Source of the DNA: a virus
Lineage: Duplodnaviria; Heunggongvirae; Uroviricota; Caudoviricetes
Virus record (IMG/VR): IMGVR_UViG_2531839662_000011
Reading direction: 5' to 3' (one strand)
DNA length: 23,270 nucleotides
The notes under the pieces are model-generated. The model was not told the origin of the DNA, made no database searches, and saw only the letters and a program-made list of their open reading frames with translations. Shown here piece by piece: positions 1,200 through 22,848 of this stretch. Each line of letters begins with the position of its first letter. The stretch's first letter is position 1. A program made the translations under genes and the position numbers.

Positions 1200-1805
1200 T
1201 TACACCCTCCCCAGTGCCAGCGGTCTGTTGCTCTGACCATTAACCCCCTGATGCAGTCTGGCGTTTTTCCTGGCGATAAAACCCGCAGTAGCGGCAAACT
1301 CTGCACCCCGACACGCTTTAGCTGTGCGCATATCCCCGTCGCGCAGTCCCTTAGTGCTGTGCAGGTTCTTTCTGTAAAGCTCAAGGCGGCTTTTTTCTTC
1401 CGGGGAGACGTCATACACCGCAATGACATCACGGGCACCAAAGACCCAGCCTTCGCAGAACTGGTCGCCACGGGCTACCCGCGTGGACGGACCGCAACGT
1501 TTGCAGTGTTTATCCTGATATTTCTTGCGCTCTGCCATCATCTGACGGGAAAGCACATCAAACGCGTAAGCCGCGATTTCCGGGCGGCTGTCAGAGCCAT
1601 AAAAACGCACGTGACGTTTGAGTGAACCAGAAGCCCGGTACTCACCGGAGATGTAACACTCGACACCGAAGGCTTTACAGACCAGGTCACACAGGATGTG
1701 CATATAACGCGGCGGCGTACTGGCATCACTCGGCGCACCCGCGCTGGCAGCTTCCTGAATGTCGAACAATTCAGCGTCGTTTTCGCTGATACCATGCTGG
1801 CGCAT
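1200..1805 (-). CDS. hypothetical protein, 201 aa, contains HCKRCG...FCEGW Cys cluster
   Basis: Long ORF with ATG start in early-operon orientation; protein-like composition; no family recognised. Confidence 0.55.
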   Translation of the reverse strand: MRQHGISENDAELFDIQEAASAGAPSDASTPPRYMHILCDLVCKAFGVECYISGEYRASGSLKRHVRFYGSDSRPEIAAYAFDVLSRQMMAERKKYQDKHCKRCGPSTRVARGDQFCEGWVFGARDVIAVYDVSPEEKSRLELYRKNLHSTKGLRDGDMRTAKACRGAEFAATAGFIARKNARLHQGVNGQSNRPLALGRV

Positions 1806-1922
1806 ATAAACCTGGGCTTTTGCAATAGCGTTAGCGGCTTCTTCCGGGCTTGATGTTCCTCTGGCAAGGCGTAACAGTTTTTGATTTTGGCAATGTATTT
1901 ATCTTTCATGGTCGTCTGAACC

Positions 1923-4566: not shown

Positions 4567-4806
4567 TTATTGCCATACGACGGTACAGCCGTCGATACAG
4601 GACGTTTTAACCACACGACGCAGGCCGCTGAATGTCTGGATGATTTCCGTTACCGGCCATACAGGACCACCCACGGGCGGGCAGGCATAAACCACAGGTA
4701 AACGGTGATGCTGCCCCGTTACACGACCGCCAGTGGTGTGGATGGCCACACGGGCACGGGAACGGACGGCGTTAATGGTCTGCTTGTCCATCGTCTTGCT
4801 CTCCAT
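4567..4806 (-). CDS. hypothetical small protein, 79 aa, translationally coupled to B
   Basis: ATG 4806-4804 overlaps B stop TGA 4808-4806 (ATGA). Confidence 0.5.
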   Translation of the reverse strand: MESKTMDKQTINAVRSRARVAIHTTGGRVTGQHHRLPVVYACPPVGGPVWPVTEIIQTFSGLRRVVKTSCIDGCTVVWQ

Positions 4807-5699
4807 CAGTGAATTAACATTTCTGAATATTTATCAATGGCCTGCACACTGACCGGTGCATCGCTGATATCACAAATCCGGTACACACCGCGCGCCAGCT
4901 TGAACAGACGACGGGCATTACCCAGCGAACGTGTGTAAAGTGCCTCACCAATTTCCGGGTCCGCCGCTTCCGGCATCATGTCTGTGGCAATCTTGTTAAA
5001 ATCTTCCTGCGTCAGCGTATCGCCCAGGTTAAGCGCCAGCGCCACGCGGCTGTATAATTGAGCGAACTCACCACAACGGCCCTTAAGGTTAATCAGAAGG
5101 TGAGGCATACCCGCCAGGACAATCCCGATACCCGCTTTGTCATGCAGACGGCGCAATACCTCCAGTGCACGATAGGGGAGCAGTTCAGCCTCATCCACCA
5201 TCAGCAGACGACCTGACCCACGCAGTTCACGCACACAGGCATCAATCTTCTCGCGAATATCGCCGTGAACCTTTACCCCAAGCTGACGGCACAGTTCATC
5301 GAGTAACTTTCTGGCCGTATAGCCAATATCGGCTTCAATGAGCACTACATCCCGGTTTCTGGCGGCATATTCACTCAGAATCATGCTTTTACCCAGACCC
5401 GCCGCGCCATACAGCACGCAAATATCACACTCCAGATGGGCGTAGGTCAGCACCTCCAGCCCTTTGGCGGCCATGCCGGTGGTGACAAATCGCACTTTAA
5501 TACGGCGGTTGTTTTCCTTTTCCCATTCACGGGTCACAAAGGCAGAAATACGTTCTTCAATATCAGCCATATCGCCCTGATATTTGCCCTGCAAATACTG
5601 GTTGATAACGGCGCTGCTACGACCAATAGCACGGGCAACGTGGGTCTGCGTAAAGCCGCGACGGGCCATTACGTCATTTAATTGCGTAATTAAACTCAT
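4806..5699 (-). CDS. B: MuB-like DNA transposition ATPase (AAA+), 297 aa
   Basis: Walker A LYGAAGLGKS, Walker B LLMVDEAE, N-terminal HTH; immediately downstream of transposase as in Mu. Confidence 0.9.
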   Translation of the reverse strand: MSLITQLNDVMARRGFTQTHVARAIGRSSAVINQYLQGKYQGDMADIEERISAFVTREWEKENNRRIKVRFVTTGMAAKGLEVLTYAHLECDICVLYGAAGLGKSMILSEYAARNRDVVLIEADIGYTARKLLDELCRQLGVKVHGDIREKIDACVRELRGSGRLLMVDEAELLPYRALEVLRRLHDKAGIGIVLAGMPHLLINLKGRCGEFAQLYSRVALALNLGDTLTQEDFNKIATDMMPEAADPEIGEALYTRSLGNARRLFKLARGVYRICDISDAPVSVQAIDKYSEMLIH

Positions 5700-5717: not shown

Positions 5718-7532
5718 TTAACGATTATTTGTGCCGTTTTTCTTTAAATTGCGCTCACGGTCAGACACGAATAAATAAAGTTCTTCTTTTTCCTTTTTCT
5801 CCTGACGTTCCAGTCCATATCCCAGATTAAAGTCAGGCTTCTGCGTAATGGCCGGGGTAAGCTCGCGTTTAGCCTCTTCGATTTTCTGCGTGGCCCGTGC
5901 AATGCGGCCCCTGACGCGTTTCTCCAGTTTTTGTTCGATAACTGGTTTAGCGAAGGCATCAACCTTGTTACCGTTCCAGATGGCATCGCAGATATAAGAG
6001 CCATCAGCCCGCCGGACAATGACGCTGTTTGCATCATGAATATCGTAACTGACCCTGACTTCATTCCCGTGCTCTGCGGCCAGCTCATACGAGTAATAAA
6101 TATTGTTGAATAACTGAATTTCCCCGCGAAATGTTTTGCGCGTCACTTCCGGTCTGAACATTTCATGCAGTTCTTCCGGCGACAGGAAATCAATTTCAAC
6201 ATTCTGCTCTTTTATCAGTTTCCGGCGATACGCTGCCGGGCTGTAATATTCGCCATCCTCTTTGCGGGGTAGGCTGCTGTGTGGCCGGTTGTTATAGCGT
6301 CTGACCTCCAGCTCTATGGCGGCCATCAGTTGCTCAAAGGTAGGGATTTCATCCCTCGCCTTAACCTGCCGTTTTGTCAGCTCTTTCCCTTTGTGGGTGG
6401 CCTTAATGGCTGACTGCATAATCCGTTGCTGCATCATTACGGTTTCCTTGTCTGCATCCCTTGCGCAGTACGTCTGGAAACTCAGAGCCACGTCTTTGGG
6501 TATTCCTTTGTTTGCCCGTTCAATCACCCCGCGCCCCTGCGGGTTACCTGGTATCCCCGTGTGATGTTCCACACCCAGCCGGGGCAGAATCCCGGTAATA
6601 TCGGCATCAAGCACCCGGTTTTTTTCACCGCCCCCGTTATCGGAGTAATAAATCAGCGGTATCCCGTGCTGCGCCATGCCGTAACGTAACGCATCAGCAA
6701 CGGCTATCACGTTCTCCGACAGGGACAGTGACCAGCCCACAACAAAGCGTTGCCCCGCATCCATAACCAGCGTCACTTCTGGCCGGAAAATATTGCCGGT
6801 CAGGGGGTTAAACGCGGTCATTTTCATACAGTGACCATCCCCGACCCATACCGCATTAACCGGTAATGATGTCCAGTCGCGCCGCACAAAGGGATTGAGC
6901 GAACGCCAGGCTGAACCGGTGGAGCGGAAACGCTCTTTAACAATCACCGGGACGCTGCTTAACACCCGTCTTACTGCGTGAACTGAAGGCAGTGCCGCCA
7001 GCATTCCCGCATCGTTCGCGTGTTTTTCATGCCACCAGGCTGAAAACTCGCGATACGCATATTCAACGGTCGGGCGCTTCCATGAGCGATAGAACATAAA
7101 GAAATCGCTCAGCCACCAGACCTGCTCCCACGGTGTTCCCTTATGATGATCGGGAGCCAGTAACGCCAGTAACTGATTGGCATCACCGCGCGCCATCAGC
7201 CAGGCGGAATACCATTCCTGTAAACTCCCTGTACTGACGCCAGTCCGTTTACCCTGTCGGGCATTAGCAGTATTACCTGCCACAATAACACGCTCGGGCA
7301 AAGCCTCCTGGCGGATACCATCAACGATGTGTTTTATCGCCGCCGTCCTGGACATTCCTGCGTATTCACGCAGTTTATGCACTTCGGTAGCCAGCAATAT
7401 CCGCGCATCAGCGATGGCCCTTTGCTTGTCGGTCAGTGCCTGGACTTCGCGTAATGCCAGTTCCGGGCATTTGACCATCACCTCCAGTTCATCGCGAACG
7501 GTGACGTTTTTAACTGCCTTCTGCTCAACCAC
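5718..7532 (-). CDS. A: MuA-like DDE transposase, 604-codon ORF lacking the N-terminal domain because of an upstream in-frame TAG
   Basis: Long ORF with Mu transposase-like core (WVGDGHCMKM...DAGQRFVVGW...); track start 7532 is GTG with no SD; same frame as 7590-7760 fragment. Confidence 0.9.
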   Translation of the reverse strand: MVEQKAVKNVTVRDELEVMVKCPELALREVQALTDKQRAIADARILLATEVHKLREYAGMSRTAAIKHIVDGIRQEALPERVIVAGNTANARQGKRTGVSTGSLQEWYSAWLMARGDANQLLALLAPDHHKGTPWEQVWWLSDFFMFYRSWKRPTVEYAYREFSAWWHEKHANDAGMLAALPSVHAVRRVLSSVPVIVKERFRSTGSAWRSLNPFVRRDWTSLPVNAVWVGDGHCMKMTAFNPLTGNIFRPEVTLVMDAGQRFVVGWSLSLSENVIAVADALRYGMAQHGIPLIYYSDNGGGEKNRVLDADITGILPRLGVEHHTGIPGNPQGRGVIERANKGIPKDVALSFQTYCARDADKETVMMQQRIMQSAIKATHKGKELTKRQVKARDEIPTFEQLMAAIELEVRRYNNRPHSSLPRKEDGEYYSPAAYRRKLIKEQNVEIDFLSPEELHEMFRPEVTRKTFRGEIQLFNNIYYSYELAAEHGNEVRVSYDIHDANSVIVRRADGSYICDAIWNGNKVDAFAKPVIEQKLEKRVRGRIARATQKIEEAKRELTPAITQKPDFNLGYGLERQEKKEKEELYLFVSDRERNLKKNGTNNR

Positions 7533-7589
7533 TGCGGGCAGTTGCGTATCTTCCAGGACCTGATGGGTCAGGCGCTTACGTAAAACTTT

Positions 7590-7760
7590 CTACGCTTCAG
7601 CGGGCAGGCAGTCGATGTGATACTCGAATGCTTTTGTGCCTTCACGCTTGCGCTTCCATTCCGGGTGCGTCTCTGTGATCCGATTGAGCGTCCAGCGCAC
7701 CCCCTGAACTGTACCGGGCAAACCAGGAAGACCGGCCAGCTCATTGGCTGGATAAAACAT
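7590..7760 (-). pseudogene. A: MuA N-terminal DNA-binding domain fragment, 56 codons then TAG (7592-7590), in frame with transposase ORF
   Basis: ATG 7760-7758 overlaps ner stop (TAATG); MFYPANELAGLPGLPGTVQGVRW...KAFEYHIDCLPAEA* resembles Mu A N-terminus (ANLPGLPKT...KGGKAIEY...LPVEAK). Confidence 0.7.
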
Positions 7761-7996
7761 TACGCCGCCTTACTGGCATACCGGCTTGGCCAGATCTCCG
7801 CAGGTTCCACACCAATAGCATCGGCTATGATGCGTTCATATTTAGGGCATGAGCGATACAGTGCATTTTTTAAAGAGTCTTTTTTTAGACCAGCGCGTTC
7901 AGAAAGTTCACGCAATGTAAAACCTTTGGTGTGCACAGCGGCAACGATGTACTCGCGGTGCCAGTCTTTGTTCATTACTTCATTTCTAACCATCAT
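7760..7996 (-). CDS. ner: Ner-like DNA-binding regulator, 78 aa
   Basis: ATG 7996-7994 (track ORF extends upstream without support); ...IADAIGVEPAEIWPSRYASK matches Mu Ner C-terminus ...IANALETKPEVIWPSRY. Confidence 0.85.
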   Translation of the reverse strand: MMVRNEVMNKDWHREYIVAAVHTKGFTLRELSERAGLKKDSLKNALYRSCPKYERIIADAIGVEPAEIWPSRYASKAA

Positions 7997-8164: not shown

Positions 8165-8812
8165 ATGAGTAAACAAACCGCCGATGATTTTTCCTTTTCT
8201 CAGAATAGAAAAGAAAGCATTCAGGACAGAATCAAGCAACTGGTTGGCACTAGGAGTCTGCGTAAAGCTACCTCAGACTGGGGGTTGCCGTACTCGACCA
8301 TAAATAACTACTTTGAGAAAGGCACCACTCCCGGCCTAAATGTGGTCGCTACGATAGCAAAATTAGAGAATGTATCACTGGAATGGTTGGTCTACGGTGA
8401 GAGCGAGTGCGATCCAATAATAGAAAAAAAGGTACCTACAGAAGACGTTAACCGCCCAAACACAAGTATTGTCGATGAAATACTAAGGCGAGCTACTCCA
8501 GAAGATAGAGAACGTCTTATTGATATGCTGTGTTGTATTGGCATCAAAGGCGTCTTGGAACGCTTACAACAACCCACCAGGCAAGCTACGCAGGCCGACA
8601 GCGACCTGGACGAACAGGAGAATGCCATCAGAAGCCTAAACATCAGGGAATCGCTTAAAGACGCTATTTGCATGGCATTGGCTGGTAATGAAGAAACTGA
8701 CAAAGAGATTTTGCGACGCATCGAATCTCGTGCACGGACTGGGTCGCCAGGTGGTCAGACCGTTGCCACGCCGGAGCAAGAAACGAAGCCTGTAAGCAAA
8801 AAATCAGCATGA
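8165..8812 (+). CDS. prophage repressor, Xre/CI-type HTH, 215 aa
   Basis: ATG 8165 (track start 8150 is TTG); HTH signature SLRKATSDWGLPYSTINNYFEKG...LEWLVYG; divergent from ner as Mu c is. Confidence 0.7.
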   Translation: MSKQTADDFSFSQNRKESIQDRIKQLVGTRSLRKATSDWGLPYSTINNYFEKGTTPGLNVVATIAKLENVSLEWLVYGESECDPIIEKKVPTEDVNRPNTSIVDEILRRATPEDRERLIDMLCCIGIKGVLERLQQPTRQATQADSDLDEQENAIRSLNIRESLKDAICMALAGNEETDKEILRRIESRARTGSPGGQTVATPEQETKPVSKKSA

Positions 8813-9050
8813 ACGCCTACTGCCTGGTGGGCGCATGCTGCCAACTAACTAGCGACATCCACAACAAGACCAATACAGAAGACGGATAAGAAAGGAACAA
8901 ATCAAGCAAGGTTAAAACGGGTTTTAAAATCTTTTAAAAGGCGATCGCTTTCCTGCACCACCAGATCAAAGTAGTCCAGAATAAAGCGTAAAAAAAGGCA
9001 CTTTTGGTCATTTCTTTCAAAACGATCCAGAATCGGTGAAATCTCTCACA
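8813..9050 (-). other. candidate Mu-like left end (attL region)
   Basis: - strand reads 5'-TGTGAGAGATTTCACCGATTC... from 9050 inward, resembling Mu end TGTATTGATTCAC...; tail-fibre homology of flanking phage stops here. Confidence 0.4.
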
Positions 9051-9399
9051 TCCCGCACCACTCAAGGCTTGCAGGTTCGTCCAGGCTGCTCGGACTCAGT
9101 CCAGAATTGATCACCACCCCACACATCCCCAGTTCACGAAGGGTTTTACCGGGGTATGATTTACAGTCAATCACAATATCCCCGCTGATGAAGCCCTCCT
9201 CCACCGCACCGTCGGAAAAGGGTTCCTGCCCGAATTCGCCGTACAACGATGTCATTGCTGCCATTTCATCCGGCGTGGATGGCAATGCACGCCCGCCCCC
9301 GTCACCAAGCAGAACATGCCGGACGGTCACGGTTTGCCCGTTCTGATATGCTGCTTCAATTTCTGCAGCGCCGGACGTTGTCAGAATCAGTCCATTCAT
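9046..9399 (-). pseudogene. H: tail-fibre gene (P2 gpH / Mu gpS type), N-terminal 117 codons only
   Basis: N-terminus ...LTTSGAAEIEAA...VLLGDGGG...LRELG resembles P2 H ITTAGAAKLAAA...AVGDGGG...MRELG; stop TGA 9048-9046 falls inside Mu-like end. Confidence 0.65.
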
Positions 9400-9986
9400 A
9401 CACCTGCCTCACTCTGCCCGCCTGTGGGCACTGTCTTTGTTGTCACACCGGTACTTCTGATTTTTTCTGTCGCCATCACATAGCCGTAACCAAATCCACG
9501 CCCTGTGCTGTTCCCGTAAACGTGAATACTGAACCAGCTGCGCAGATTTTTGGCACGGAGCACCGCATGCTTCAGATCCTGATGATCATTCATCAGCACC
9601 GGTAAATCTTTCTGCTCCACGTTCAGACGGAAGGTATACGGCTCCCCGGGTGGGGTCTGCTCATACCACTCAACAATCTGCGACCGGAAGGGACTGTCAG
9701 CCAGCGATGCCATCAGCGCCGCTTTAGTCCCTCTGTGGCGGTGGATGTATGCAGCACGTTTTATCGCAGACCGTTTTTCCGCCTCCGTCCAGTGTTCATT
9801 CCAGGTGTCCACCGCCATTTCCCAGGCCAGCCATGGCAGCAATTCAGCAGGACATAAATCGGGATTTTTGACATAGCGGATCAGACATACTGCGATTTCC
9901 GCCAGCATATCACCGGCGGTACTGTCCACCACCCGCTCTGCCCGGCTGGCACTGACCGGCAGTATGCTCCTGATATCGTCATTCAT
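9396..9986 (-). CDS. I: baseplate/tail protein, P2 gpI-like, 196 aa
   Basis: NPDLCPAELLPWLAWEMAVDTWNEHW matches P2 I NPDTCPANLLPWLAWAFSVDRWDEKW; ATG 9986-9984. Confidence 0.85.
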   Translation of the reverse strand: MNDDIRSILPVSASRAERVVDSTAGDMLAEIAVCLIRYVKNPDLCPAELLPWLAWEMAVDTWNEHWTEAEKRSAIKRAAYIHRHRGTKAALMASLADSPFRSQIVEWYEQTPPGEPYTFRLNVEQKDLPVLMNDHQDLKHAVLRAKNLRSWFSIHVYGNSTGRGFGYGYVMATEKIRSTGVTTKTVPTGGQSEAGV

Positions 9987-10893
9987 CAGTTGTCTCCACC
10001 TTATTCAGCGTTACCTTGCGGCACCACGGTGCCTGCCCCATCGCAGGAACGATATCACTGCCCGGAGAGGTCAGATTCACCGTAATCACCCCGGTCTGGT
10101 GAAGGGCACCATCCATGCCAGAACGGGATGCCACCGAGCCAATCAGGTGGACGCTGTCAGTGTATAACTGCAGCGCCTTGCGGGCATTTGCCATAACCAG
10201 TTCACCATCCAGTCCGTAGGGAATATGAATATCCGCCACCACATCGTAGGGAATAATTTCTGCCGTCCGGACACTGACAAAATCCGTCAGGGGACGGGTT
10301 TCATCATCACAGACTGATGCTGCCACCTTATCCAGCAGGGGTTGTGATGCAGTGCCATTTCCGGACCGGGATAACACATAAAGAAAAACACGCCCTTCCT
10401 GTGAATGCGTTTCCGGCCCGTAAGCCTTCACATCCAGCACATCAGGATCAGCACTTTGCGCAAAATAGTGGTACGCATTTTTCGCGCCGGCGGTGCTCAG
10501 CCGTGCCCATGACAACTGGATACGTTCGCGAAAAGCGTCATCATCTTCATACACCGCAGGCGTGGGCGGAATGGTGCTGTCATCTGCCGGGGTAATCACC
10601 AGACGCTGCACCTGAAAATTCGCACCAATCTGATCCAGGTCGTTCCTCCGGGCACTCGCAAGCAATACACCCCGGACAGCATCATTGACCTGCTGGCGCA
10701 TCAGCGCCACGCGAAAAGCCAGCGCCTCTGCCCATTTATACGCCGGATCGGATTCCACCAGGGCCGAAAACAACGTGTCCAGCTCCTGATACTTCGTCAC
10801 TATCTGAGTGACCAGCACAGCAGTGTCCGGCACCTCCACCGCATCCGGTACCGGTATCGCAGACAGATCAATAATTGCCTGAGACGTTGCCAA
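9979..10893 (-). CDS. J: baseplate assembly protein, P2 gpJ-like, 304 aa
   Basis: IIDLSAIPVPDAVE...LVITPADDSTIPPTPAV matches P2 J; TTG start with GAGGAG upstream. Confidence 0.9.
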   Translation of the reverse strand: MATSQAIIDLSAIPVPDAVEVPDTAVLVTQIVTKYQELDTLFSALVESDPAYKWAEALAFRVALMRQQVNDAVRGVLLASARRNDLDQIGANFQVQRLVITPADDSTIPPTPAVYEDDDAFRERIQLSWARLSTAGAKNAYHYFAQSADPDVLDVKAYGPETHSQEGRVFLYVLSRSGNGTASQPLLDKVAASVCDDETRPLTDFVSVRTAEIIPYDVVADIHIPYGLDGELVMANARKALQLYTDSVHLIGSVASRSGMDGALHQTGVITVNLTSPGSDIVPAMGQAPWCRKVTLNKVETTDE

Positions 10894-11224
10894 TTTTTAT
10901 CTCCTCGAGTCGAATCGTATCCTGAGTTTCGTTATTCACCCCGACAAGCGTCAGCCACGCGCTTCCTTCTCCTGTCCACGTCACTTCCACCCGCCGGAGA
11001 GTCAGGCGGGGTTCCCAGCGTTCAAGGGCGGTTACCGTTTCGCGAACAATTCTCACCCGCGTGAAATCATCCTGTGGGTTATCAAGCAGACTGAAAAGTC
11101 TGCTGCCGTATTCCCTGAGCAGGACCCGGCTGCCGGCCGGTGTTGACAAAATATCAGTGACGGACTGGCGCAGATGTTCGTTACCGTGCAGATATCTGCC
11201 GGTGGCTGAATCAATACCAATCAT
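10868..11224 (-). CDS. W: baseplate protein, P2 gpW-like (gp25-like), 118 aa
   Basis: Size, position between V and J, GPW/gp25-like sequence; ATG 11224-11222. Confidence 0.85.
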   Translation of the reverse strand: MIGIDSATGRYLHGNEHLRQSVTDILSTPAGSRVLLREYGSRLFSLLDNPQDDFTRVRIVRETVTALERWEPRLTLRRVEVTWTGEGSAWLTLVGVNNETQDTIRLEEIKIGNVSGNY

Positions 11225-11257
11225 GTTGTTTATTCCGGAAAAAGAACTGAAAGGAGA

Positions 11258-11881
11258 TTACATTTGCTGACCAGGCTGTCCGGTGCTGCCACCACTGTCG
11301 CCCCGGTGATTGTGACCGTTATAGACAATTCTGATTTGACTCATCGTTCCGTGATAATCAGAAACCTCACCACCGACCATCAGATCCGCCTTAACCACCG
11401 CCTCAGCATTCATGGTTGCTTTACCCTGTACGGTCAGGGTATCTGTGATTTCTACCGGACCGTCCAGGGTTCCCCTGCCGGTAATTTTATAGCTGCCGCC
11501 TTCAGCCAGCGTGATGGACAGGGCATTAGCCTGACGGTCGTAACGGATTTCCGTTCCGGTATCAAACAAAATAACATGTTCGTATTCACTGCCCTCAGGG
11601 ACAGGAATGGCGTCAATATTGGCCCCCGGATACACCCGACCGTTACGCAAATCGCCCGCCTCCGATATCACTGTAACGGCATCTCCGGGAGCCGGGTAAT
11701 TACTGACCTGCATGTAGCGCCCGGACTGTACCTGAATCCAGGGCAACGGAGGCGAAAGCACATCCCCGATATCCACCCGAACCATCACCGGGCTACCCGG
11801 GATCACCTCGTCCACCACGCCGCGACGGACCATGTCCGCCACCCTGCGGCGTAACTCTGCCACTTCATCTGCCAGACTCAT
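11258..11881 (-). CDS. V: baseplate spike protein, P2 gpV-like, 207 aa
   Basis: C-terminus YNGHNHRGDSGGSTGQP matches P2 V HTHKHPGDSGGTTGSP; in-frame ATG 11881-11879 (track ORF over-extended). Confidence 0.85.
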   Translation of the reverse strand: MSLADEVAELRRRVADMVRRGVVDEVIPGSPVMVRVDIGDVLSPPLPWIQVQSGRYMQVSNYPAPGDAVTVISEAGDLRNGRVYPGANIDAIPVPEGSEYEHVILFDTGTEIRYDRQANALSITLAEGGSYKITGRGTLDGPVEITDTLTVQGKATMNAEAVVKADLMVGGEVSDYHGTMSQIRIVYNGHNHRGDSGGSTGQPGQQM

Positions 11882-12428
11882 CACCGGTGCCCTCTGTTTT
11901 CCAGATAAGACGATAATCCCGCTCATGTTTCTTGCCGGTTTCCGGAGCTTTCCCCAGCCAGACTTCCTGTAAAGGCGCACCAGCCGGAACCTCGAACGGA
12001 TCTTCTCCGACAGGAATATCCTGTTCAAAAGAAACGCGGAAAACGATGTAGTCATCCAGAAGCCGGTCGAAGGTATCCACCTCAGCATCAATAAAAACAG
12101 CCGGATCAACGTTATCCAGCCCGAACGTGGCCCCCTCAATCCAGTCAGATAAATCCATCGCCAGACAACGGGCAAAAATCTGCGGTTTTGGCACGTTTTC
12201 CGTCTTCCCGGCCCGGTCTGTCACCACAAACAGATCACATTTCAGCGTGACCCGCGTCTGCCCGTCGGCAAACTGAGCCTTGTCCCAGCCCGGTACATCC
12301 ACAAACACGGCAGGCGTCACCAGTTGCGTCACTTTTTCCGGATACTCATCGGCATCTTCCACCCAGGGAATTTGTTTCAGACTGTCAATCACCGCCTGAT
12401 GCCAGGCGCCCATCATCAATGGCTCCAT
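11865..12428 (-). CDS. hypothetical tail-associated protein, 187 aa
   Basis: ATG 12428-12426 overlapping upstream stop; lies between Z-like gene and baseplate V. Confidence 0.5.
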   Translation of the reverse strand: MEPLMMGAWHQAVIDSLKQIPWVEDADEYPEKVTQLVTPAVFVDVPGWDKAQFADGQTRVTLKCDLFVVTDRAGKTENVPKPQIFARCLAMDLSDWIEGATFGLDNVDPAVFIDAEVDTFDRLLDDYIVFRVSFEQDIPVGEDPFEVPAGAPLQEVWLGKAPETGKKHERDYRLIWKTEGTGDESGR

Positions 12429-13006
12429 CACTCCAGCCCCTTAAATACCCGGAATTTCAGTTCATGCTCAAAATTTTTCAGGATCAGTGCTTCCGCATCC
12501 GGAAAAACAAAATCCTCTATACGGTTCAGCATGGCTTCATAAATATCAATTTCCGCTTCACGCACCCTCCGTCGTCCGGATGCCTGTCGGATCAGTATCG
12601 TTTTCCTTTTTGATATACGTCCGTTACGATTTTCCGCTTCGAACTGGTTGATAAAGGCATCATCCGTTGACCAGGTGGTGACAGGCAGGGATTCCCCGGC
12701 AGGTTTAAAACTGATCTCCCGAGCCTTCCTGCGGCTGGAAGCTGGTGCAAAACGCCCCCGCTCATCGCGCAACTGATGGCGTTCGCCGCGTCGTCCCCCA
12801 CTGATGCGTCCGCGCAGATCGCGTACTTTGATGGCGTTCAGACCGAACCATACCTTCGCCTCATCAAACTCATCACCGTTACGACGAATGATAAAATTAT
12901 GCAGAACACGCTTTTTGATCATTTTCTGACTGCGTGGCGCAACCTGTTTTTTAAACTCTGCCAGGGCCTTCATCCGCAGTGCAGACGCGGCTCTTTTCAG
13001 CGCCAC
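12428..13006 (-). CDS. basic tail-completion protein, possibly lambda Z-like, 192 aa
   Basis: Same length as lambda Z, very basic, follows FII; GTG start; N-terminal resemblance from memory only. Confidence 0.45.
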   Translation of the reverse strand: MALKRAASALRMKALAEFKKQVAPRSQKMIKKRVLHNFIIRRNGDEFDEAKVWFGLNAIKVRDLRGRISGGRRGERHQLRDERGRFAPASSRRKAREISFKPAGESLPVTTWSTDDAFINQFEAENRNGRISKRKTILIRQASGRRRVREAEIDIYEAMLNRIEDFVFPDAEALILKNFEHELKFRVFKGLE

Positions 13007-13129
13007 GCCCAGGCTTTACGGATCTGACTTTTTGACCCACCCAGTTTAGCGATAATTTTCAGCACCTCATCTTCATCAATATCGACAACGAGGTTTCGTG
13101 CCAGCCGTCGCTGCCGGGCACTGCTTCGT

Positions 13130-13534
13130 TCATGCTCTCTGACTGCCATAACGTTTACTCGGTCGTTCCGGTGCAGCAGGTGTATTTCTCCCGGGCTCTC
13201 CACGCGCAAGGGTGATGGTAATCACCCCCTGACCCGCAGCGCCTGACTCATCCCAGCCGGGATCGACTACCTGATAGGGTTCGCCGTGGATCATGACCCT
13301 GTCATATTTTTTCAGACCGGCGGCCCATGCGCTCCGGGTAAATAACACGGGCGCAGTATCACGAATTTCGCCGCTGCCAGTGTTCATCCCGGTGTTATCT
13401 GCCGGGGCATCAAAAACGGCACGGATTTTTCTTTCCGTGCCGCCCGGATATATGCTGATTTCCGTCCCCATCGTATCCAGGATGATGTCATCCGCATCAC
13501 TCATGGCCTGATCGAACAGATTATCGAACATCAT
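13130..13534 (-). CDS. FII: head-tail connector protein, lambda gpFII-like
   Basis: MFDNLFDQAMSDADD matches lambda FII MADFDNLFDAAIARADE; ATG 13534 overlaps FI stop. Confidence 0.8.
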   Translation of the reverse strand: MMFDNLFDQAMSDADDIILDTMGTEISIYPGGTERKIRAVFDAPADNTGMNTGSGEIRDTAPVLFTRSAWAAGLKKYDRVMIHGEPYQVVDPGWDESGAAGQGVITITLARGEPGRNTPAAPERPSKRYGSQRA

Positions 13535-13899
13535 CACTCCCGGATTTTTTCTGCCAGACCGTCTGCCAGCAACGCGGGAACTGTGGCTTCATTAACCAGC
13601 ACAACACTGGAGGCCCGGGCAAACATCAACATTTTTCCCGTCACAGCATCACAGGCTGGCATATGCGCCGTTTTCAGCATACGCACCCGGGCGAGTCCCT
13701 GCTCAGAATGCATTCCGTCGCCGGATGCATCGTTGCCCACCTCTTCCTTCCCCGTCTCCTCCCCATCGAATCCAGCGGCCTCCTCCTCCCATTCCGCCAG
13801 ACGCTGCTCAAGATCGGCTTTTGAACCTGAAATATCTGCTTCACGCCCCAGAATCACTGCCAGTTCCTGCAAACGTTCAGTCATCTGCTCTTTTGTCAT
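13534..13899 (-). CDS. FI: DNA-packaging accessory protein, lambda gpFI-like, 121 aa
   Basis: In-frame ATG 13899-13897 with GGGAGAG SD; follows E as in lambda (track ORF over-extended into E). Confidence 0.65.
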   Translation of the reverse strand: MTKEQMTERLQELAVILGREADISGSKADLEQRLAEWEEEAAGFDGEETGKEEVGNDASGDGMHSEQGLARVRMLKTAHMPACDAVTGKMLMFARASSVVLVNEATVPALLADGLAEKIRE

Positions 13900-13916
13900 C
13901 ACATCTCTCCCGTGCG

Positions 13917-13944
13917 CTAAAGAAAAAGGCGGGAATATCCCGCC
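13917..13944 (-). terminator. intrinsic terminator/attenuator just after major capsid gene
   Basis: Hairpin GGCGGGA-ATA-TCCCGCC (13928-13944) followed on - strand by TTTTTCTTT, 6 nt after E stop. Confidence 0.4.
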
Positions 13945-13949
13945 CTGTC

Positions 13950-14978
13950 TTATTTCACCTGAACCACCACAAACGCATCCGGATCCGGCAGCACCATCAA
14001 CGGCGCAGACTGCGTCATTGTATATTCGCAACCAGGATCCCCCACTTCCTCCCAGTGTTTCGGATAACGAATCGCAGAGGTGATCCCTTCACTCAGCGCC
14101 TGATTATCCTGGATTGCGCCATAGCAACGGACGCCCTCCGCCTGAGTGTTTCCCAGAATCAGTGTACCTTCCGGCAGATAACGCTGTTCATCCCCGTTTT
14201 CGTCAACATACGTTGTCTTCGCCACCACGACAGCCAGATCGCCGTACCAGCCCTTAAAGGAAACCACGGAACCCAGGTCTTTCAGTGCGGTTTCCAGCTC
14301 AGATTTGGAGCCACGGCGGGTATCCAGTTTTTCACGGAACAGTTTAAAACCGTTCAGCATACGCCAGACCGTGCCGTCCATAATCGCGATATTGATGGTA
14401 CCGGAAGCAAAATCGCAGTACGCATCAAGATCATGCGTCGGATCAAAGGTGTCAGCATTCTGCTTTGACCATTCGCGTCCGCCAGCCTGCGTAATGTTAT
14501 TGGCGGCAGAACGCCCAAAATCCACTTCCACCGTCTCAAACTGCTCGCCGCTCATAGTGTATTTACCCTGCAGAACAGCACTGACTGCCTGCATTTCTTC
14601 CACCTGCACAATCGCCTGCTCTTCCTGTTTCAGGTTGTCCGTCAGAATACGCAGACGGCGGTAAGCCGGGTCATTAAGGCGGGCCGGATCTTCCCCCGGA
14701 AGACGTTCTACAGCCTGCTGATAATCAAAGCGGTGTTTTGGTTTTACATAACCGGGACGTAACACGCGGGTTTCACCACCACGGCTGCGCAGCACTTTGC
14801 CTGACACCACCGGAGACACATACGCCGCAACCGGTGTTTTGCCGGTAATTTTATCCAGCATGACTTCCTGAGTATGGAAAGTGATCGTGCGACGAAAGAA
14901 CAGCTCAAGAAACAGCGCACGAAATTTCACTTTCTGCTCGGTGTACCCGAGTAACTGACGCGTGGTAAATAACCCCAT
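13950..14978 (-). CDS. E: major capsid protein, lambda gpE-like, 342 aa
   Basis: Collinear similarity to lambda E (e.g. RSRGGETRVLRPGYVKPKH, GNTQAEGVRCYGAIQD, MTQSAPLMVLPDPDAFVVVQ). Confidence 0.95.
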   Translation of the reverse strand: MGLFTTRQLLGYTEQKVKFRALFLELFFRRTITFHTQEVMLDKITGKTPVAAYVSPVVSGKVLRSRGGETRVLRPGYVKPKHRFDYQQAVERLPGEDPARLNDPAYRRLRILTDNLKQEEQAIVQVEEMQAVSAVLQGKYTMSGEQFETVEVDFGRSAANNITQAGGREWSKQNADTFDPTHDLDAYCDFASGTINIAIMDGTVWRMLNGFKLFREKLDTRRGSKSELETALKDLGSVVSFKGWYGDLAVVVAKTTYVDENGDEQRYLPEGTLILGNTQAEGVRCYGAIQDNQALSEGITSAIRYPKHWEEVGDPGCEYTMTQSAPLMVLPDPDAFVVVQVK

Positions 14979-15001
14979 AATTTATATTCCTTCAGAAACA
15001 C

Positions 15002-15030
15002 AAACGGGCCGCATCGCGACCCGTTTTTTC
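15002..15030. other. stem-loop in D-E intergenic region
   Basis: AAACGGG-(11 nt)-CCCGTTT with T-run on + side and U-rich tract on - side. Confidence 0.3.
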
Positions 15031-15047
15031 AGTTAATCACTTCACCA

Positions 15048-15383
15048 TCAGGCGTGGCTGATGGCACTTCCCACAAATGCGTTGGCTTTTTTCACCGCAT
15101 CCACCGAACCAGGCCAGACCAGCGACTCAGTGGCAAACGTACCGCTTTTGTAGTACGTCAGCATGGGCTCGGTCCCGGCAAGCGCCAGAGCCAGCACACC
15201 CACAGCCGTTCCGGCTTTCTGACCATCCCAGACAACCAGTTTTCCGGTGGCGTCATCCACCATCAGTGGCGTCAGTGCAGGTGTGGCAGCACTGATACCA
15301 CTGGTGGCTGTTGCGGTATGCGCCGGATCGCTTCCGGCAAAAATGCGCGCATCTGCACGCTTTTCCGTGGTGGTTTTAATCAT
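15048..15383 (-). CDS. D: head decoration protein, lambda gpD-like, 111 aa
   Basis: GSDPAHTATA...TPLM...KLVVWDG...YKSGTF matches lambda D; ATG with AGGAGG upstream. Confidence 0.85.
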   Translation of the reverse strand: MIKTTTEKRADARIFAGSDPAHTATATSGISAATPALTPLMVDDATGKLVVWDGQKAGTAVGVLALALAGTEPMLTYYKSGTFATESLVWPGSVDAVKKANAFVGSAISHA

Positions 15384-15421
15384 TTTTCAGCCTCCTGATT
15401 TATCTGAATTCCGGATATCGC

Positions 15422-16132
15422 TTACGGCATACTCATCAGCAGGTCTTCCTCACCGCGCCCGGCAGTTCCGCCACCGGAAACCGCACTGGCAGCATGCTGT
15501 GCCATAAAGCGATCAAAAAGTGTTTCCTGTGACGGTTGCGATGCCGCCGGCGCGGCTGCCAGCAGCGTTTTCGCCTGCGCCACCGTCATTCCCGGTTGTT
15601 CTGTCAGTGCCTGTGCAAGTTGCTCGCGCCCTTTTGCCTCCGGCAGCGCCATAATCTGATCGCCGACACTTGCAGAACCAGCAACCGGTGCCGCCGCCAG
15701 TAACGTTTTGGCCTGGTCAACGGTCATTCCCGGCTGTTCAGCCAGCGCCTGCGCGAGTTGTTCACGCCCTTTTGCTTCCGGTAACGCCATAATCTGATCG
15801 CCTGTGCCTGCAGCACCAGCAGCAGGGGCTGCCGCCAGAAACGCTTTCGCCTGCTCCACCGTCATCCCCGGCTGACCTGCCAGCATCTGTGCCAGTTGCT
15901 CACGCCCCTTTGCTTCCGGCAGCCCCATAATCTGATCGCCCGTGCTGTCAGTACCGGCAACCGGCGCAGCTGCAAGCAACGTTTTCGCCTGCTCAACCGT
16001 CATTCCTGGCTGACCTGCCAGCATTTGCGCCAGTTGCTCGCGCCCTTTCGCCTCCTGACAATTCAGGATCCCCATCACGCGCTGATTTTCCTGGGCCACC
16101 GCTTCAGCAACGGTGAGATTTTTAACAGTCAT
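15422..16132 (-). CDS. nu3: Nu3-like scaffold protein from in-frame internal start within C
   Basis: In-frame ATG 16132-16130 preceded by AAGGAG at 6 nt; analogous to lambda Nu3 nested in C. Confidence 0.4.
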   Translation of the reverse strand: MTVKNLTVAEAVAQENQRVMGILNCQEAKGREQLAQMLAGQPGMTVEQAKTLLAAAPVAGTDSTGDQIMGLPEAKGREQLAQMLAGQPGMTVEQAKAFLAAAPAAGAAGTGDQIMALPEAKGREQLAQALAEQPGMTVDQAKTLLAAAPVAGSASVGDQIMALPEAKGREQLAQALTEQPGMTVAQAKTLLAAAPAASQPSQETLFDRFMAQHAASAVSGGGTAGRGEEDLLMSMP

Positions 16133-17038
16133 TGCATTCTCCTTCGTAACAGAGTCATTCAGTACAGAAACCATCACTTCAACGGCATCTGCAGCATTAA
16201 TCAGTTGATCAGCCAGGCCTGCATCAATGCCTGCCTGACCGTCATAAACGGCAGCCTCGGTATTCATCACCGCCTCTGAACTCAGCCCCGTATAAAGCGC
16301 CACCTTGTCGACAAACATCCGGCGGGCCTCATCAATACGGCGCTGAAAATCTGCACGCACACCTGCCGGCAATGCCTGAATACTGTTGCCGTCAACCTTA
16401 TGCTGCCCGGAGTAAATCAGCGTGATGTCCACCCCTTCCTGTGCCAGTTGTTTCTCGTAACTGGTGTGCGCCATCATCACGCCAATCGAACCAATTTTTG
16501 CCGTCTGCGTGACCAGCCGACGGGTACAGGCTGCCGCCAGCAACATGGCGGCTGAACAGGCCATGTCATTACACAGCGCCCACACGGGCTTCTGTTCCCG
16601 CAGACGGTAAATCATGTCAGCACAGTCAAACGCCCCGGCAGCCTGACCGCCCGGGCTGTCGATATCCAGCAAAATGCCGCGCACATCCGGATCATTCACC
16701 GCCATCTGAAGGCGGGCCGTCAGGCCGTCATAGCCAGTCATGCCGGAGTAAGGCCGCAGGGTACCCAGTTTATGCACCAGCGTGCCGCTCACCGGAAGAA
16801 TGGCGATGCCATTCTTCACCTGGTAACTCTTTGCCGGACGCTGACCGCCCGCCATATAGTCAGTCACAGCCAGTTGCATACCATCAGCATCAAGCTGAAC
16901 AGCCTGCTGAGGAACGGCAAGGCTGCCGGCTCCCATCTCTTTACCCAGCGCGCAAAAGAAAACCCGCGCATAGGCGGGTTCCAGTAAAAGCGGCTCATTA
17001 AATGCCATGGCGGCAATATGCGATAAATTACGACGCAT
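15422..17038 (-). CDS. C: head maturation protease/scaffold, lambda gpC-like (S49/ClpP-like), 538 aa
   Basis: Position after portal, protease-like N-terminal half, C-terminal scaffold region with tandem repeats. Confidence 0.9.
   Translation of the reverse strand: MRRNLSHIAAMAFNEPLLLEPAYARVFFCALGKEMGAGSLAVPQQAVQLDADGMQLAVTDYMAGGQRPAKSYQVKNGIAILPVSGTLVHKLGTLRPYSGMTGYDGLTARLQMAVNDPDVRGILLDIDSPGGQAAGAFDCADMIYRLREQKPVWALCNDMACSAAMLLAAACTRRLVTQTAKIGSIGVMMAHTSYEKQLAQEGVDITLIYSGQHKVDGNSIQALPAGVRADFQRRIDEARRMFVDKVALYTGLSSEAVMNTEAAVYDGQAGIDAGLADQLINAADAVEVMVSVLNDSVTKENAMTVKNLTVAEAVAQENQRVMGILNCQEAKGREQLAQMLAGQPGMTVEQAKTLLAAAPVAGTDSTGDQIMGLPEAKGREQLAQMLAGQPGMTVEQAKAFLAAAPAAGAAGTGDQIMALPEAKGREQLAQALAEQPGMTVDQAKTLLAAAPVAGSASVGDQIMALPEAKGREQLAQALTEQPGMTVAQAKTLLAAAPAASQPSQETLFDRFMAQHAASAVSGGGTAGRGEEDLLMSMP
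15530..16054 (-). repeat. tandem in-frame repeat, ~4 copies of 138 bp (46 aa), in scaffold-coding region
   Basis: Unit EAKGREQLAQ(M/A)LA(G/E)QPGMTV(E/D)QAK..LAAAP.AG....GDQIM.LP; in-frame MTV ATG codons at 15589, 15727, 15865, 16003. Confidence 0.85.
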
Positions 17039-18599
17039 CGACTTTTTCTCCCGTTGTCTGTCGGATCTGCTGCTGAAACGTGTCCTTTATCCAGATGGGG
17101 CGGGGAAGACCCGCTGCCTGTCGCTCCTGGCTTTCACGCAGTTGCTGGCGGAAAATCTCCTGATAGTCATCGCCCATCAGGGCCAGCTCTTTCTCATACG
17201 TGCTTAAACCACCTTCAATACGCATCACCGCTTCCTGCACTTCCTTAAGGCCATCAATCGCCATGCGACCGGCACCAATCCACTCGGCACGACACCATCC
17301 GGAACGGGCCTCCCAGAATGAAAAACGGGATTTCGGCGGGCGGATCACACCGCGAATAAGTGCTTCCTCCAGCCAGCAGGCAAACATCTGTGATGCCAGT
17401 CGACTGGCCACAAATTTTCGTTTGCCCATAAAATACCGCCACGACTCATTGGCGGATGCCCTGGCACTGGAATAACTGACCTGTGAATAATCACGGGAAA
17501 GCTGTTCATAGGACACCCCCAGTCCGGCAGCGATGTAACGTAACAGCGCCTTTTCCAGTTCAGAGAAACCATTATCTGCATTCTGCGCTGTCTGCAGATT
17601 CAGTGAATCCCCCGGATAAAGATGCGGAATACGGACCCCGCCCAGCTTTACCGTATTGGTGGCGTAATAACGCGCGTAGCCTTTCATGATGGTGTTCAGG
17701 GGATTTTTACCGCCATCTCCCACCCCGGCGATATATTCAAATGCTTTTTCCGAATCCAGCGTGGATTCAATCGTCGCGGCATACATCGCCCGCACCACCG
17801 CCGACTGCAGTTGCGTGGCCTGCAGTGTGTCGAGCATCTTGAGGCGCTCCATGACAGAATAAAACTGGTTGGCCCCGCGCGTCTGTCCGTCCTCCTGCGG
17901 CTGAAACACATGGATCATTCCCGGTCGCCCGGAGGGCAGCGTCGCCGCAATCCGCGTCCAGTTGCTGACACCGTAACCGGGCCAGTCATCTTCCTGAACA
18001 TGGTAGGCCAGTGCTTTTCCGTACCGGTTGATTTCCACCCCGGCACGCATAAAACGATCGCCGGTACCATAACCGGGTGTACTGACACGTTTCGGGCTGA
18101 TGGTTTTGAATTTCGTCCGGAATAATGACGTGGATTCCGTATCCCATACGGGCTGGACAAAAATTTCACCGTTAAATGTATGAACGCCCACCCCTTCACG
18201 AATAAATTCGGTAAACGAGCGACGCCCCTCCACATCCATCGAACCAAACACCGGATCGCAGAATTCCATCCACGCCGCCTCCACATCTTCAATAAAGGCA
18301 TGTGAATCGGCTTCCGACATCCCCAGCCAGCGCCAGTTGGGCCGGTAACTCAGACGAAACATGTGTCCGACGATATGGTCTTTATGAATTTCAACGGCGT
18401 TTGCGGCAATACCGTTATTGCGGACCAGATCATCCGCACGGGCGTTACCCAGCTGAATGGAAGGTAAGAGCGCCACGTCGGCACTTTCCGGTGCAGGCAG
18501 CCATTCCGCAAGCTGCCCGCCAAATCCGGTACCCCCTCCGGAATACCCCATACTCTGCCGCAGTGGCTGCCCGTGAAGATCCACCAGTTCCCCGTTCAC
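17028..18599 (-). CDS. B: portal protein, lambda gpB-like, 523 aa
   Basis: GYSGGGTGFGGQL...GNARADDLVRNNG matches lambda B; GTG start overlapping W stop. Confidence 0.95.
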   Translation of the reverse strand: MNGELVDLHGQPLRQSMGYSGGGTGFGGQLAEWLPAPESADVALLPSIQLGNARADDLVRNNGIAANAVEIHKDHIVGHMFRLSYRPNWRWLGMSEADSHAFIEDVEAAWMEFCDPVFGSMDVEGRRSFTEFIREGVGVHTFNGEIFVQPVWDTESTSLFRTKFKTISPKRVSTPGYGTGDRFMRAGVEINRYGKALAYHVQEDDWPGYGVSNWTRIAATLPSGRPGMIHVFQPQEDGQTRGANQFYSVMERLKMLDTLQATQLQSAVVRAMYAATIESTLDSEKAFEYIAGVGDGGKNPLNTIMKGYARYYATNTVKLGGVRIPHLYPGDSLNLQTAQNADNGFSELEKALLRYIAAGLGVSYEQLSRDYSQVSYSSARASANESWRYFMGKRKFVASRLASQMFACWLEEALIRGVIRPPKSRFSFWEARSGWCRAEWIGAGRMAIDGLKEVQEAVMRIEGGLSTYEKELALMGDDYQEIFRQQLRESQERQAAGLPRPIWIKDTFQQQIRQTTGEKVDAS

Positions 18600-18805
18600 A
18601 GCCCCACTCCTGCCGGGCCGCGACGCCGTCCGGATACGCCCAGCGCACTTTCCAGCTCTTCAATATACTGACGCAGTTCACCAATCGTCGCCCGCGAATA
18701 CTGAACCTGACGCCCGTCCTTGCTGACGGAAACCACAGCACGTCCGATCATCAGTTCATGTAATGCCCGGCGGGCATCACAAAGCATTTCATGCGTATAA
18801 ACCAT
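18596..18805 (-). CDS. W: head-tail joining protein, lambda gpW-like, 69 aa
   Basis: ARRALHELM.G...VSKDGRQVQY...EL.QYIEELE...RRRGPAG matches lambda W; GGAGGA SD. Confidence 0.85.
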   Translation of the reverse strand: MVYTHEMLCDARRALHELMIGRAVVSVSKDGRQVQYSRATIGELRQYIEELESALGVSGRRRGPAGVGL

Positions 18806-18808
18806 TCT

Positions 18809-20725
18809 TTATCCTCCACTCAGTGCAGCCGCGATTTCTTCCAGACTCATCTCATCGTCGTCCTGCTCATCTCTTCTGGCACGGGCCAGTGCTTCAAGAT
18901 CCAGCTGCCACCGCTGAACTGAAATACGCAGGGCAGCATAGGCATATACCAGGCAGTCGAGGGCTTCGTTGCGTCGCCCTTTTTTATCCCACAGCAGTTT
19001 CACCCTGCCATTAACCACCTTCTCCACCAGCTCTTCCGCCACGATCTGACGCGCCTCTTCTTCCGAAAAAATGTCGGGGTTATCAGGAAAACGGAAGGTG
19101 TACGGGGCGGCTTCACTGGCAGAGACCACTGGCAGGGCAAAACGGGCGTACAGCATTTCCTTGACGGTATCGGAGCCCACCTCACACAAAAACACACCAC
19201 GCTGGTTGCGCTTTTTGGGCATGGTGATCACCGGCTTGCCGTACACCGATGCCCCTTTTATGGGAAGCACAAAAAAAGTGCCGTGTTTCCTTGAACGCTG
19301 ATACACAATGTCCTGGTCGATACCACCGGTATCCCAGCAGACACGGGAAATGGAAATTTCAGTACCGTCAGCATGACGATATTTTTTCCGGATCACCGTA
19401 TCAACACGTTTAAGGGTGTCCTCGTCTTCCGGTCGCCCCATGATAATTTGCTTATCAATCAGAAAGGCTTCTTCGCCGGGAGCCCAGCCCCAGACATAAA
19501 TTTCATAGCGATCTTTCTGGGAGTCGATCCCGGCGGTCAGGTAAACCACCCGCAGGGGAACCTGCGCACCATAGTGGCAGACCTTTTCCAGTAACAACTC
19601 AAAACTCAGCTTTTCTGCCACAGCCTCTTCATAGGGCTCCCCGAGCGTGGTGTTAATAAACGTCTTGACGCCGTTCGGATCCTTCAGCGCATCCAGCCAG
19701 TCATAAACAATCTGTACCCAGGTGGTGAACGGACTATACGCCGTCCAGATGTGGAAAGTGACGGAGCGCGGCGGTGGCATCTCCTCATCGCCGGCGCTGT
19801 AAAATGCCAGGCCGTCGCGCGTCCACATCCCGGTATTGTCACAAATCCAGCGCCCGTCGGTCTGGTCAAGTTCCGACTGCCGGATCACACAGCCATTATG
19901 TTCACACAGGTAATACACCGTTTCCGGTTTACCCTTCTCCCATTTCAGGCCAAATGGCGTCGCATCATCGCCAAACTTCAGATACTGGGCCTCCCCGCAA
20001 TGAGGGCAAGGGACATAAAACCGCATGAAATGCGCTGATTCATTTGCGGCTTTCTCAATCTGGCAGGAGCCTTTAATTTTTGGCGTTGAGCCACGTATGG
20101 ATTTAGGCCATACCGAGCCTTCGATACGCTTATCGCCAAGCAGCGTCGGCGAACCTTCTTTTTCCACATCCGGTTCAAACGAGGAGAGTTCGTCATAGCA
20201 GACCACATCCACAGATTTTTCACGGTAGTTTTTAGCAGCGGCGCCGCCAAGGCACCAGAAACCCACACCGGAGGAAAAACGCTTCAGGGTGAGTGTATTA
20301 TCGCGGTGCTTTCTTCCGAACCATGGAGCCAGCTCCAGCAATGCAGGAACATCCCTGATCGTTGGCTCAACATGAGATTTCATGAAATCTTCTGCAGCAG
20401 AATCTGTTGGCTGAAAAAGCAGACTGTTACGGGATTTATGCTCAATAAAATAAGCCTCCACCCCCAACAGCATTTTGGTGTAACCAACGCGCGCCGATTT
20501 AATCAGATTAACGGTGCGGATCCGGTCATTTCCCATGCTGTTCATAATGGCAAGCTGAAACGGCAGGGTTTCCCATTGTCCGGGAGTGTATGAAGATTCT
20601 TTCGGCAGATAATAATGTTGATCAGCCCACTGAACCGTCGTCAGTGGAACCGGAATATTGAGAGATAAAAGCCCTGTAGCTATCGCACCGGCTGCATTAG
20701 CTGCCTTCTGTGCGTCTGAAATCAT
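18809..20725 (-). CDS. A: terminase large subunit, lambda gpA-like
   Basis: [56 protein letters not shown] match lambda A; start taken at ATG 20725 (track 20767 also possible). Confidence 0.95.
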
Positions 20726-21245
20726 CAATCCACCTGCCCACGTTTTCACCGGCTTTAGCTGCAACATTGGAGGCTTTCGCGATTTCAGTTTTCACCACAT
20801 CAAGGTGTGACGGTGAAATATCCGGATATTTACGCTGTAATGTCAGCGGCACACGTACAAGTATCCCCGAAATCTCCTGTGCCACACGTTGCAGAATGAA
20901 GGTAAACAATTCTGTTTCCAGCACCAGCCCTTCTTCACGGGCATTTTTCAGCTCCTGTGCGTCAGCCTGTGCTTTGGTTAACCGGTAGCGTTCATAGTCA
21001 ATGGTGCCGGGTTGTAAATCTGATTCTGCAGTCGCACGCAAATCTTCCAGTTCTTTGCGGAGCTTTTCGTTTTCGATATCTTTTTCCCGCTGCGCATACC
21101 ACTCAATGGCTTCTGCAGTATTGAACATGGCTTCGATACCTTTGCCTCCCCCCGACAAAACTCTCAGCCCCTGACTTTGCCAGCCAGTGATTGTTCTGAC
21201 ATCGCACTCAAAAATTTCCGCCAGTTTCTTTTTGTTAACCTTCAC
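20697..21245 (-). CDS. nu1: terminase small subunit, lambda Nu1-like, 182 aa
   Basis: [10 protein letters not shown]...RTI..WQ.QG..VL.GGGKG...ENEKLR.E.E.LR...[26 protein letters not shown] matches lambda Nu1; GTG start. Confidence 0.9.
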
Positions 21246-21440
21246 GGCACATATTCCTCACAAAAAGAAGAAAGGATCTCAAAACGCTTTTTTCAGCGAA
21301 AAATCACCGCTGCCAGATCCTTTCTTTTTTTTAAGAAAACTCTATTAAACAACAGGTTAGCCAGAAGAAGAACGGATCTGCTTTTTCCCTGAAAATTTTC
21401 ATAAATAGCGCGTTTTTGCGCGTCCCCAGACCCTCGGTGT
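21246..21440 (-). promoter_or_regulatory. cos site: cosB with R3/R2/R1-like repeats and cosN candidate
   Basis: revcomp of 21381-21410 has CGCTATTTATGAAAATTTTC identical to lambda; GATCC(G/T)TTCTT repeats at ~21363-21380, 21313-21330 (inverted), 21263-21285; cosN candidate ~21415-21440. Confidence 0.6.
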
Positions 21441-21546
21441 TTCAGGTTCCAGAAAGGACCCGTTGAAATGGGAGTAATTATCATTTACACGCTCTAACAC
21501 CTGCATTATCGCAACCCCTCACACAGAAGGGCTGCTGTAATGCCTG

Positions 21547-22293: not shown

Positions 22294-22294
22294 A

Positions 22295-22821: not shown

Positions 22822-22848
22822 ACGTACCTCCGTTCTTTCGTTTTTTGA

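Follow-up and report, generated by a model that had tools for sequence, protein, structure and literature searches.

An in-frame TAG codon splits the putative transposase gene of a Mu-like prophage in Escherichia coli 2.3916, raising the question of whether it records a broken gene, a functional arrangement or an error in the sequence. The window that we analyzed, 23,270 nucleotides long, is the whole contig AFAB02000077.1 of assembly GCA_000194535.2 from that strain. Its GenBank annotation enters the transposase (A) gene as two CDSs, EII49025.1 and EII49054.1. The features of the locus are as follows.

5718-7760, minus strand: complete transposase (A) gene, 680 codons plus stop, broken at codon 57
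7590-7760, minus strand: 5' fragment ORF, 56 codons plus TAG (EII49025.1)
7590-7592, minus strand: amber codon TAG, private C-to-T transition at 7592; ancestral codon CAG (Gln57)
5718-7532, minus strand: downstream 604-codon ORF, from the GTG at codon 77 (EII49054.1)
7476-7478, minus strand: in-frame ATG at codon 95; alone among the downstream starts it has an SD-like GGAGG, 2 nt upstream
4806-5699, minus strand: intact gene for a MuB-like AAA+ ATPase (AAA_22/TniB), downstream of A
7760-7996, minus strand: ner-like gene (HTH_35), its stop overlapping the A start (TAATG); identical in UMNF18
8165-8812, plus strand: repressor gene, CI-type HTH (PF07022); identical in UMNF18
9090-9123, minus strand: left end of the Mu-like prophage, 5'-TGTGGGGTGGTGATCAATTC..., with the end at window position 9123

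The reading frame was determined by translating the minus strand from 7760 to 5718, which yielded 681 codons, i.e., 680 residues and the terminal stop, and only one stop inside the frame. An earlier note, made from the sequence alone, had described an ATG at 7760-7758 overlapping the ner stop, a 56-codon ORF ending at TAG 7592-7590, and a 604-codon ORF (7532-5718) in the same frame with no stop between 7589 and 7533. Its coordinates and frame proved correct, and so did the proposal that both ORFs belong to one MuA-like gene, as they form a single 680-codon frame that is uninterrupted in relatives. The internal TAG at codon 57 has no counterpart in 13 complete relatives. As it is the single stop in a 680-codon frame that has been kept open in all of them, it is not a chance feature.

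To establish what the gene encodes, we ran protein searches on A with Gln restored at codon 57. Pfam HTH_Tnp_Mu_1 (PF02316) matched residues 7-141 (E 1.8e-10, above its curated cut-off) and Mu-transpos_C (PF09299) matched residues 534-591 (E 6.8e-17, 61.7 bits versus a cut-off of 21.7), with a match to rve falling below its cut-off. The first 63 residues aligned with MuA domain I-alpha (1TNS; residues 7-64) and with the DNA-binding domain of the Mu repressor; the resemblance of the 56-aa product to the Mu A N-terminal domain, noticed earlier, is thus confirmed by both the 1TNS alignment and the Pfam match. A also aligned with the MuA catalytic core (E about 4e-4). The DDE triad, D308, D374 and E414, is present in the window, its residues being aligned with MuA D269 and D336 or invariant in 33 homologues. 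An AlphaFold model was obtained for an intact, 96%-identical homologue with a 33-sequence alignment (mean pLDDT 72.6). Its best structural match was 4FCY, the Mu transpososome (E 6e-14, 14% identity), 1BCO was matched as well, and its N-terminal domain has a wHTH topology (pLDDT about 83). Read through the stop, the translation therefore aligns with MuA-family proteins over both the core and I-alpha, and has more than 100 homologues in which these parts are fused.

Judged by its sequence, the A gene has the testable defining features of a MuA-family transposase: a PF02316 wHTH, an RNase-H-like DDE core, a PF09299 barrel, a MuB-like neighbor and c/ner-type regulators. The comparison with bacteriophage Mu, for which we used MuA domains I-alpha, I-beta, I-gamma, II and III and the structures 1TNS, 4FCY and 1BCO, showed the same assembly of N-terminal winged helix, helical end-binding region, DDE RNase-H core and Mu-transpos_C barrel. 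As in Mu, A is followed by a MuB-like ATPase gene and preceded by c and ner. The left end of the element, the end that the window covers, begins with TG, and insertion sites are scattered: in other genomes this end is joined to at least 10 different host sequences, the pattern that a transposable phage would give. Unlike in Mu, the repressor is of the CI type and not of the Mu-c type, A is interrupted at codon 57, and its sequence is distant from MuA, as the E value of the core and the 14% identity of the fold alignment indicate.

We then asked how the stop is distributed. Among 5,426 complete E. coli genomes, 59 have the locus, but in none of the 5,426 did the 101 nt surrounding the stop find a 100% match. 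Codon 57 was CAG (Gln) in all 15 E. coli copies that we fetched (83-99.8% identical) and in 7/7 metagenome contigs with the stretch. Thirteen of the fetched copies are complete and have an uninterrupted 2043-nt A gene for a 680-aa protein; the remaining two are destroyed elsewhere in A, one by a deletion and one by an IS1 insertion. Within the collection searched, this contig is the only one with the 56-aa product and the only one with the 604-aa product, and an exact-pattern scan of the GTDB species representatives gave no match. One base change thus made the stop, as the earlier note had proposed, but the ancestral codon was CAG and not the AAG that it had assumed, an ancestor ruled out by the relatives. 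The alignment of the TAG with a Lys codon of Mu A (LPVEAK), which the same note had given, is accurate, the residue being K58 of MuA in the 1TNS alignment. A Dcm (CCWGG) deamination hotspot was also ruled out, as the sequence GCGCAGA around the mutated C has no such site.

The wider family gave the same picture. Homologues in Escherichia, Salmonella, Citrobacter, Yersinia and other genera are 676-691 aa long and have the N-terminal domain in one protein with the remainder. The A/ner region had no Megablast match among 50,697 phage records, and a protein-level search was required to find related phages; in that search isolated phages matched A over residues 1-674 as a single piece. The nearest of them, at 40-49% identity, are Pseudomonas VW-6B, Klebsiella ST405-OXA48phi1.1, Yersinia vB_YpM_Tongde, Mannheimia 3927AP2 and Haemophilus SuMu, whereas A of the E. 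coli prophages in UMNF18 and E2348/69 has 95.7-99.8% nucleotide identity to the window. All of these phages and prophages share the early-region gene order of the window, but their A gene is uninterrupted. The transposase family is under purifying selection, with a dN/dS of 0.20 overall and of 0.37 for codons 1-76, the latter value being inflated by module exchange. Our literature search found no mention of the assembly accession or of the Mu-like prophage of E2348/69.

These data bear on the idea of a natural two-gene arrangement, or of programmed recoding, that would supply a DNA-binding subunit and a catalytic subunit. Two CDSs are indeed annotated in GenBank. However, the stop is absent from 22/22 other copies, from all listed full-length homologues and from the isolated phages, and it lies inside a helix of the predicted domain. 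The earlier note had allowed for active relatives that encode the N-terminal domain as a separate gene; none was found, and the isolated phages and more than 100 homologues have the domain fused. Because the stop is not conserved among relatives, we exclude a natural split or programmed recoding, to which we grant a negligible probability.

The explanation that we favor, with a probability of roughly 0.55, is that the TAG is a strain-private null allele (CAG to TAG at Gln57) that immobilizes the Mu-like prophage of E. coli 2.3916. Nonsense mutations in prophage genes are known and ordinary events, and the public annotation already shows the split. The main difficulty came from comparing the whole prophage with its siblings. 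The window is collinear with E. coli UMNF18 (99.93%), in which the Mu-like phage occupies the same insertion into the tail gene of another prophage. The 9,126 Mu-like bases of UMNF18 are 100.000% identical to those of four other assemblies, and a fifth is identical over the 7,282 bases available. This genotype, with an intact A gene, occurs at three insertion sites, the site of the window being shared by UMNF18 and L029 (and by 12 similar places). Relative to it, the window copy has seven private changes in 9.1 kb, all between 1084 and 7592, which span 6.5 kb of the early operon. In addition to the amber codon they are the following.

7420, minus strand: missense K114R (AAG to AGG) in A; AAG in every relative examined
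7150, minus strand: missense G204D (GGT to GAT) in A; Gly at least 90% conserved in the wider family
7112, minus strand: synonymous L217 (TTG to CTG) in A, private relative to the invariant genotype
3156, minus strand: missense A21V in an ANR-family regulator gene, private
1878-1882, minus strand: 1-nt homopolymer deletion (T5 versus T6 in relatives), a frameshift at codon 11 of a DUF2786 gene
1083-1084, no strand: 2-nt deletion in an intergenic GC-rich hairpin, private

Among the relatives examined, CTG at codon 217 was seen once (L027). The DUF2786/DUF7168 gene (1200-1909, minus strand) is a 236-aa ORF in UMNF18, E2348/69, GF75 and other assemblies; its frameshift either disrupts a second gene of this prophage copy or is a miscall of the 454 type.

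The five substitutions among the seven changes are all transitions. The flanking 13,991 bases contain a single difference private to the window; the private substitutions and the homopolymer indels of that part belong to UMNF18. Seven of the eight private changes therefore fall in 39% of the sequence, with a binomial probability of about 0.008. Clock-like build-up of the seven changes was ruled out by the rates in sibling copies (0 in 9,126 bases) and in the flank (1 in 13,991). Gene conversion by a divergent second copy, or a chimera with one, was rejected as well: the amber and both missense alleles are found in no relative examined, and a donor 83-96% identical would have brought many more differences. 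Candidate causes of the clustering are draft error, a local mutational burst and recombination with an unsampled copy.

The excess of seven changes fits a consensus error at least as well as it fits a null allele. The serious rival, which we hold to be less probable than the null allele, is that the strain has CAG and that consensus or assembly errors in a 2011-era draft (AFAB02) produced the TAG and several, perhaps all, of the other six differences. All seven differences are private to one record, when five other assemblies of the genotype agree perfectly, and the 56-aa product is in no independent assembly. One change, T6/T5, alters the length of a homopolymer, as is typical of 454 data, one substitution is located where two homopolymers (CC/TTTT) meet, and homopolymer indels relative to the sister draft UMNF18 also occur in the flanking prophage. 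On the other hand, four of the five substitutions lie outside homopolymer contexts, and the adjacent 13,991 bases agree with outgroups except at one site, the homopolymer errors there being those of UMNF18. The agreement with outgroups in the flank indicates that the contig is otherwise accurate. An error in the form of a chimeric consensus with a divergent second copy is unlikely, given the absence of the amber and missense alleles from relatives. The seven changes could instead all be real and stem from a local burst of mutation in which the transposase was inactivated, possibly through error-prone repair of a break from abortive transposition. We regard such a burst as improbable; if it did occur, the window would offer a natural snapshot of a transposable prophage becoming locked in.

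If the mutation is real, its effect depends on where it falls in the protein. In the AlphaFold model, the winged helix comprises E2-4, H5-8, H18-31, E36-38, E45-48 and H54-70, and is followed by a low-confidence linker (71-89) and by the next domain, which begins with H90. Codon 57 is predicted to be in the first turn of the last helix of the winged helix, nearly all of which would be lost. The TAG had been described as following the N-terminal DNA-binding domain; according to the model it truncates that domain at its last helix instead. EII49025.1 thus covers the winged helix-turn-helix minus the last helix, and EII49054.1 the end-binding, catalytic and C-terminal domains.

The second of these products, or a shorter 586-aa form of it, is what re-initiation at GTG77 or ATG95, respectively, might provide: a truncated transposase without the enhancer-binding domain, capable of low-level or deregulated transposition from a genuinely mutated gene. 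We consider this unlikely. The DDE residues and the remaining ORF are intact, and GTG77, 57 nt past the stop, falls inside the modeled linker, from where the product would keep every later domain; however, GTG77 has no SD, as the earlier note had said (duplex energy, +0.6 kcal/mol). ATG95 is preceded by GGAGG, but the spacing is just 2 nt, and a start there would cut helix 90-97, the first helix of the next domain in the model. The product would also carry G204D, plus K114R if made from GTG77, at conserved positions. In Mu, domain I-alpha of MuA binds the transpositional enhancer, and MuA without I-alpha retains activity, both in vivo and in vitro, when assayed without the enhancer, whereas efficient transposition in cells requires all MuA subdomains (PMC3362531). 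A restart product could in principle be active; the sequence of this gene gives little reason to expect much activity.

Suppression of the amber codon, or its natural read-through, is a further way in which the transposase might be made. The ancestral residue is Gln, and any product with Gln inserted would be wild type at position 57 and could be a functional full-length transposase. Gln is inserted at UAG both by supE-type suppressors and by near-cognate tRNA-Gln read-through. Nevertheless, natural isolates seldom carry suppressor tRNAs, and UAG is read through at a basal level of about 1% or less. We looked for tRNA genes in the window and found none. The stop occurs in no relative, and there is accordingly no sign of a selected arrangement; moreover, the product would still carry K114R and G204D. 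We therefore judge suppression or read-through very improbable as the explanation of this locus.

Under the favored explanation of a private null allele, translation from the ATG at 7760 would stop after 56 residues and yield a winged-helix fragment minus its last helix, which would probably be unstable. The end-binding, DDE and MuB-interacting parts would remain unmade, save for traces through UAG read-through or weak re-initiation. The early-operon genes downstream of A, B first, may suffer polarity. The prophage would keep its immunity genes but would presumably be unable to transpose or replicate. It would thus be a recently broken copy, neither a regulated nor a domesticated arrangement. 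Of the earlier suggestion of a transposition-defective, fixed and domesticated element, the first part stands as the simplest expected consequence of the sequence; the other two do not, as the allele is on one contig only and siblings at the same site have an intact A gene. What else is visible of the prophage hardly differs from the active genotype, and the decay, if real, is therefore very recent.

Other copies of the transposase gene have been hit independently, whether by a deletion that runs into host DNA, by IS1 inserted close to the 3' end, or by a frameshift or fusion (L006 from Eco_23-3571, L007 from RM9088, and proteins P0079, P0104 and P0133). That A was destroyed by other routes in other strains indicates that such decay is common. 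Loss of a mobility enzyme by point mutation would also liken the prophage to decaying or locked-in prophages in general. The closest parallel is with the classical Aam alleles of Mu, selected in the laboratory in Mu itself, with which the prophage keeps immunity but neither transposes nor replicates unless the mutation is suppressed. A supE-type suppressor returns a Gln-to-amber allele of A to wild type, and by analogy the allele described here would be of that restorable kind. Unlike the laboratory alleles, it is a private allele in the draft genome of a natural isolate of a porcine lineage, and it affects a different Mu-like phage.

The significance of these observations is mainly one of annotation. 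EII49025.1 and EII49054.1 should be taken together as a single transposase gene, which is a pseudogene or, should the base call be wrong, intact, and the prophage of E. coli 2.3916 should not be assumed to be inducible or mobile. Wider interest is limited to the clustering of seven changes within one copy. The identical copies at three sites indicate that the parental phage genotype was recently active in porcine and other E. coli.

Comparison of the related prophages also revealed that the A gene is mosaic. Its first ~35 codons (7655-7760) fall into three types, which vary together with the ner allele (100% versus 38% identity), and residues 36-680 are 88-97% identical across the three N-terminal types (L010, L012 and L015-L017). 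The breakpoint is at the end of the predicted recognition helix and mirrors the Mu/D108 pattern, which suggests recognition of immunity-region sites by the N-terminal domain. The repressor encoded at 8165-8812 is not homologous to the transposase N terminus, unlike the Mu repressor. In a related prophage (L031, 2886-3464), a PF02316 gene occupies the repressor position; with the CI-type gene found here, this indicates that both immunity modules circulate with the same B protein.

The Mu-like element is itself inserted in another prophage (9124-23114), which has lambda-like head and P2-like baseplate genes, with the junction at 9123/9124. The tail gene at the insertion (L020 1-576) is intact in ETEC1738 (1350 nt) and is here reduced to a 354-nt stump fused to the Mu end (9046-9399). 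In the same prophage, the RefSeq portal gene of UMNF18 (L004 29424; window 17421) is frameshifted by a homopolymer deletion, and it is intact in the window and in two other strains; further indels private to UMNF18 near this gene are probably sequencing errors in its record. The contig starts (position 1) inside the Mu-like early/middle region and ends (23270) in lambdoid prophage sequence that recurs elsewhere, suggesting that its ends result from repeat-induced assembly breaks. Window positions 22882-23114 have a second, 94% match in UMNF18.
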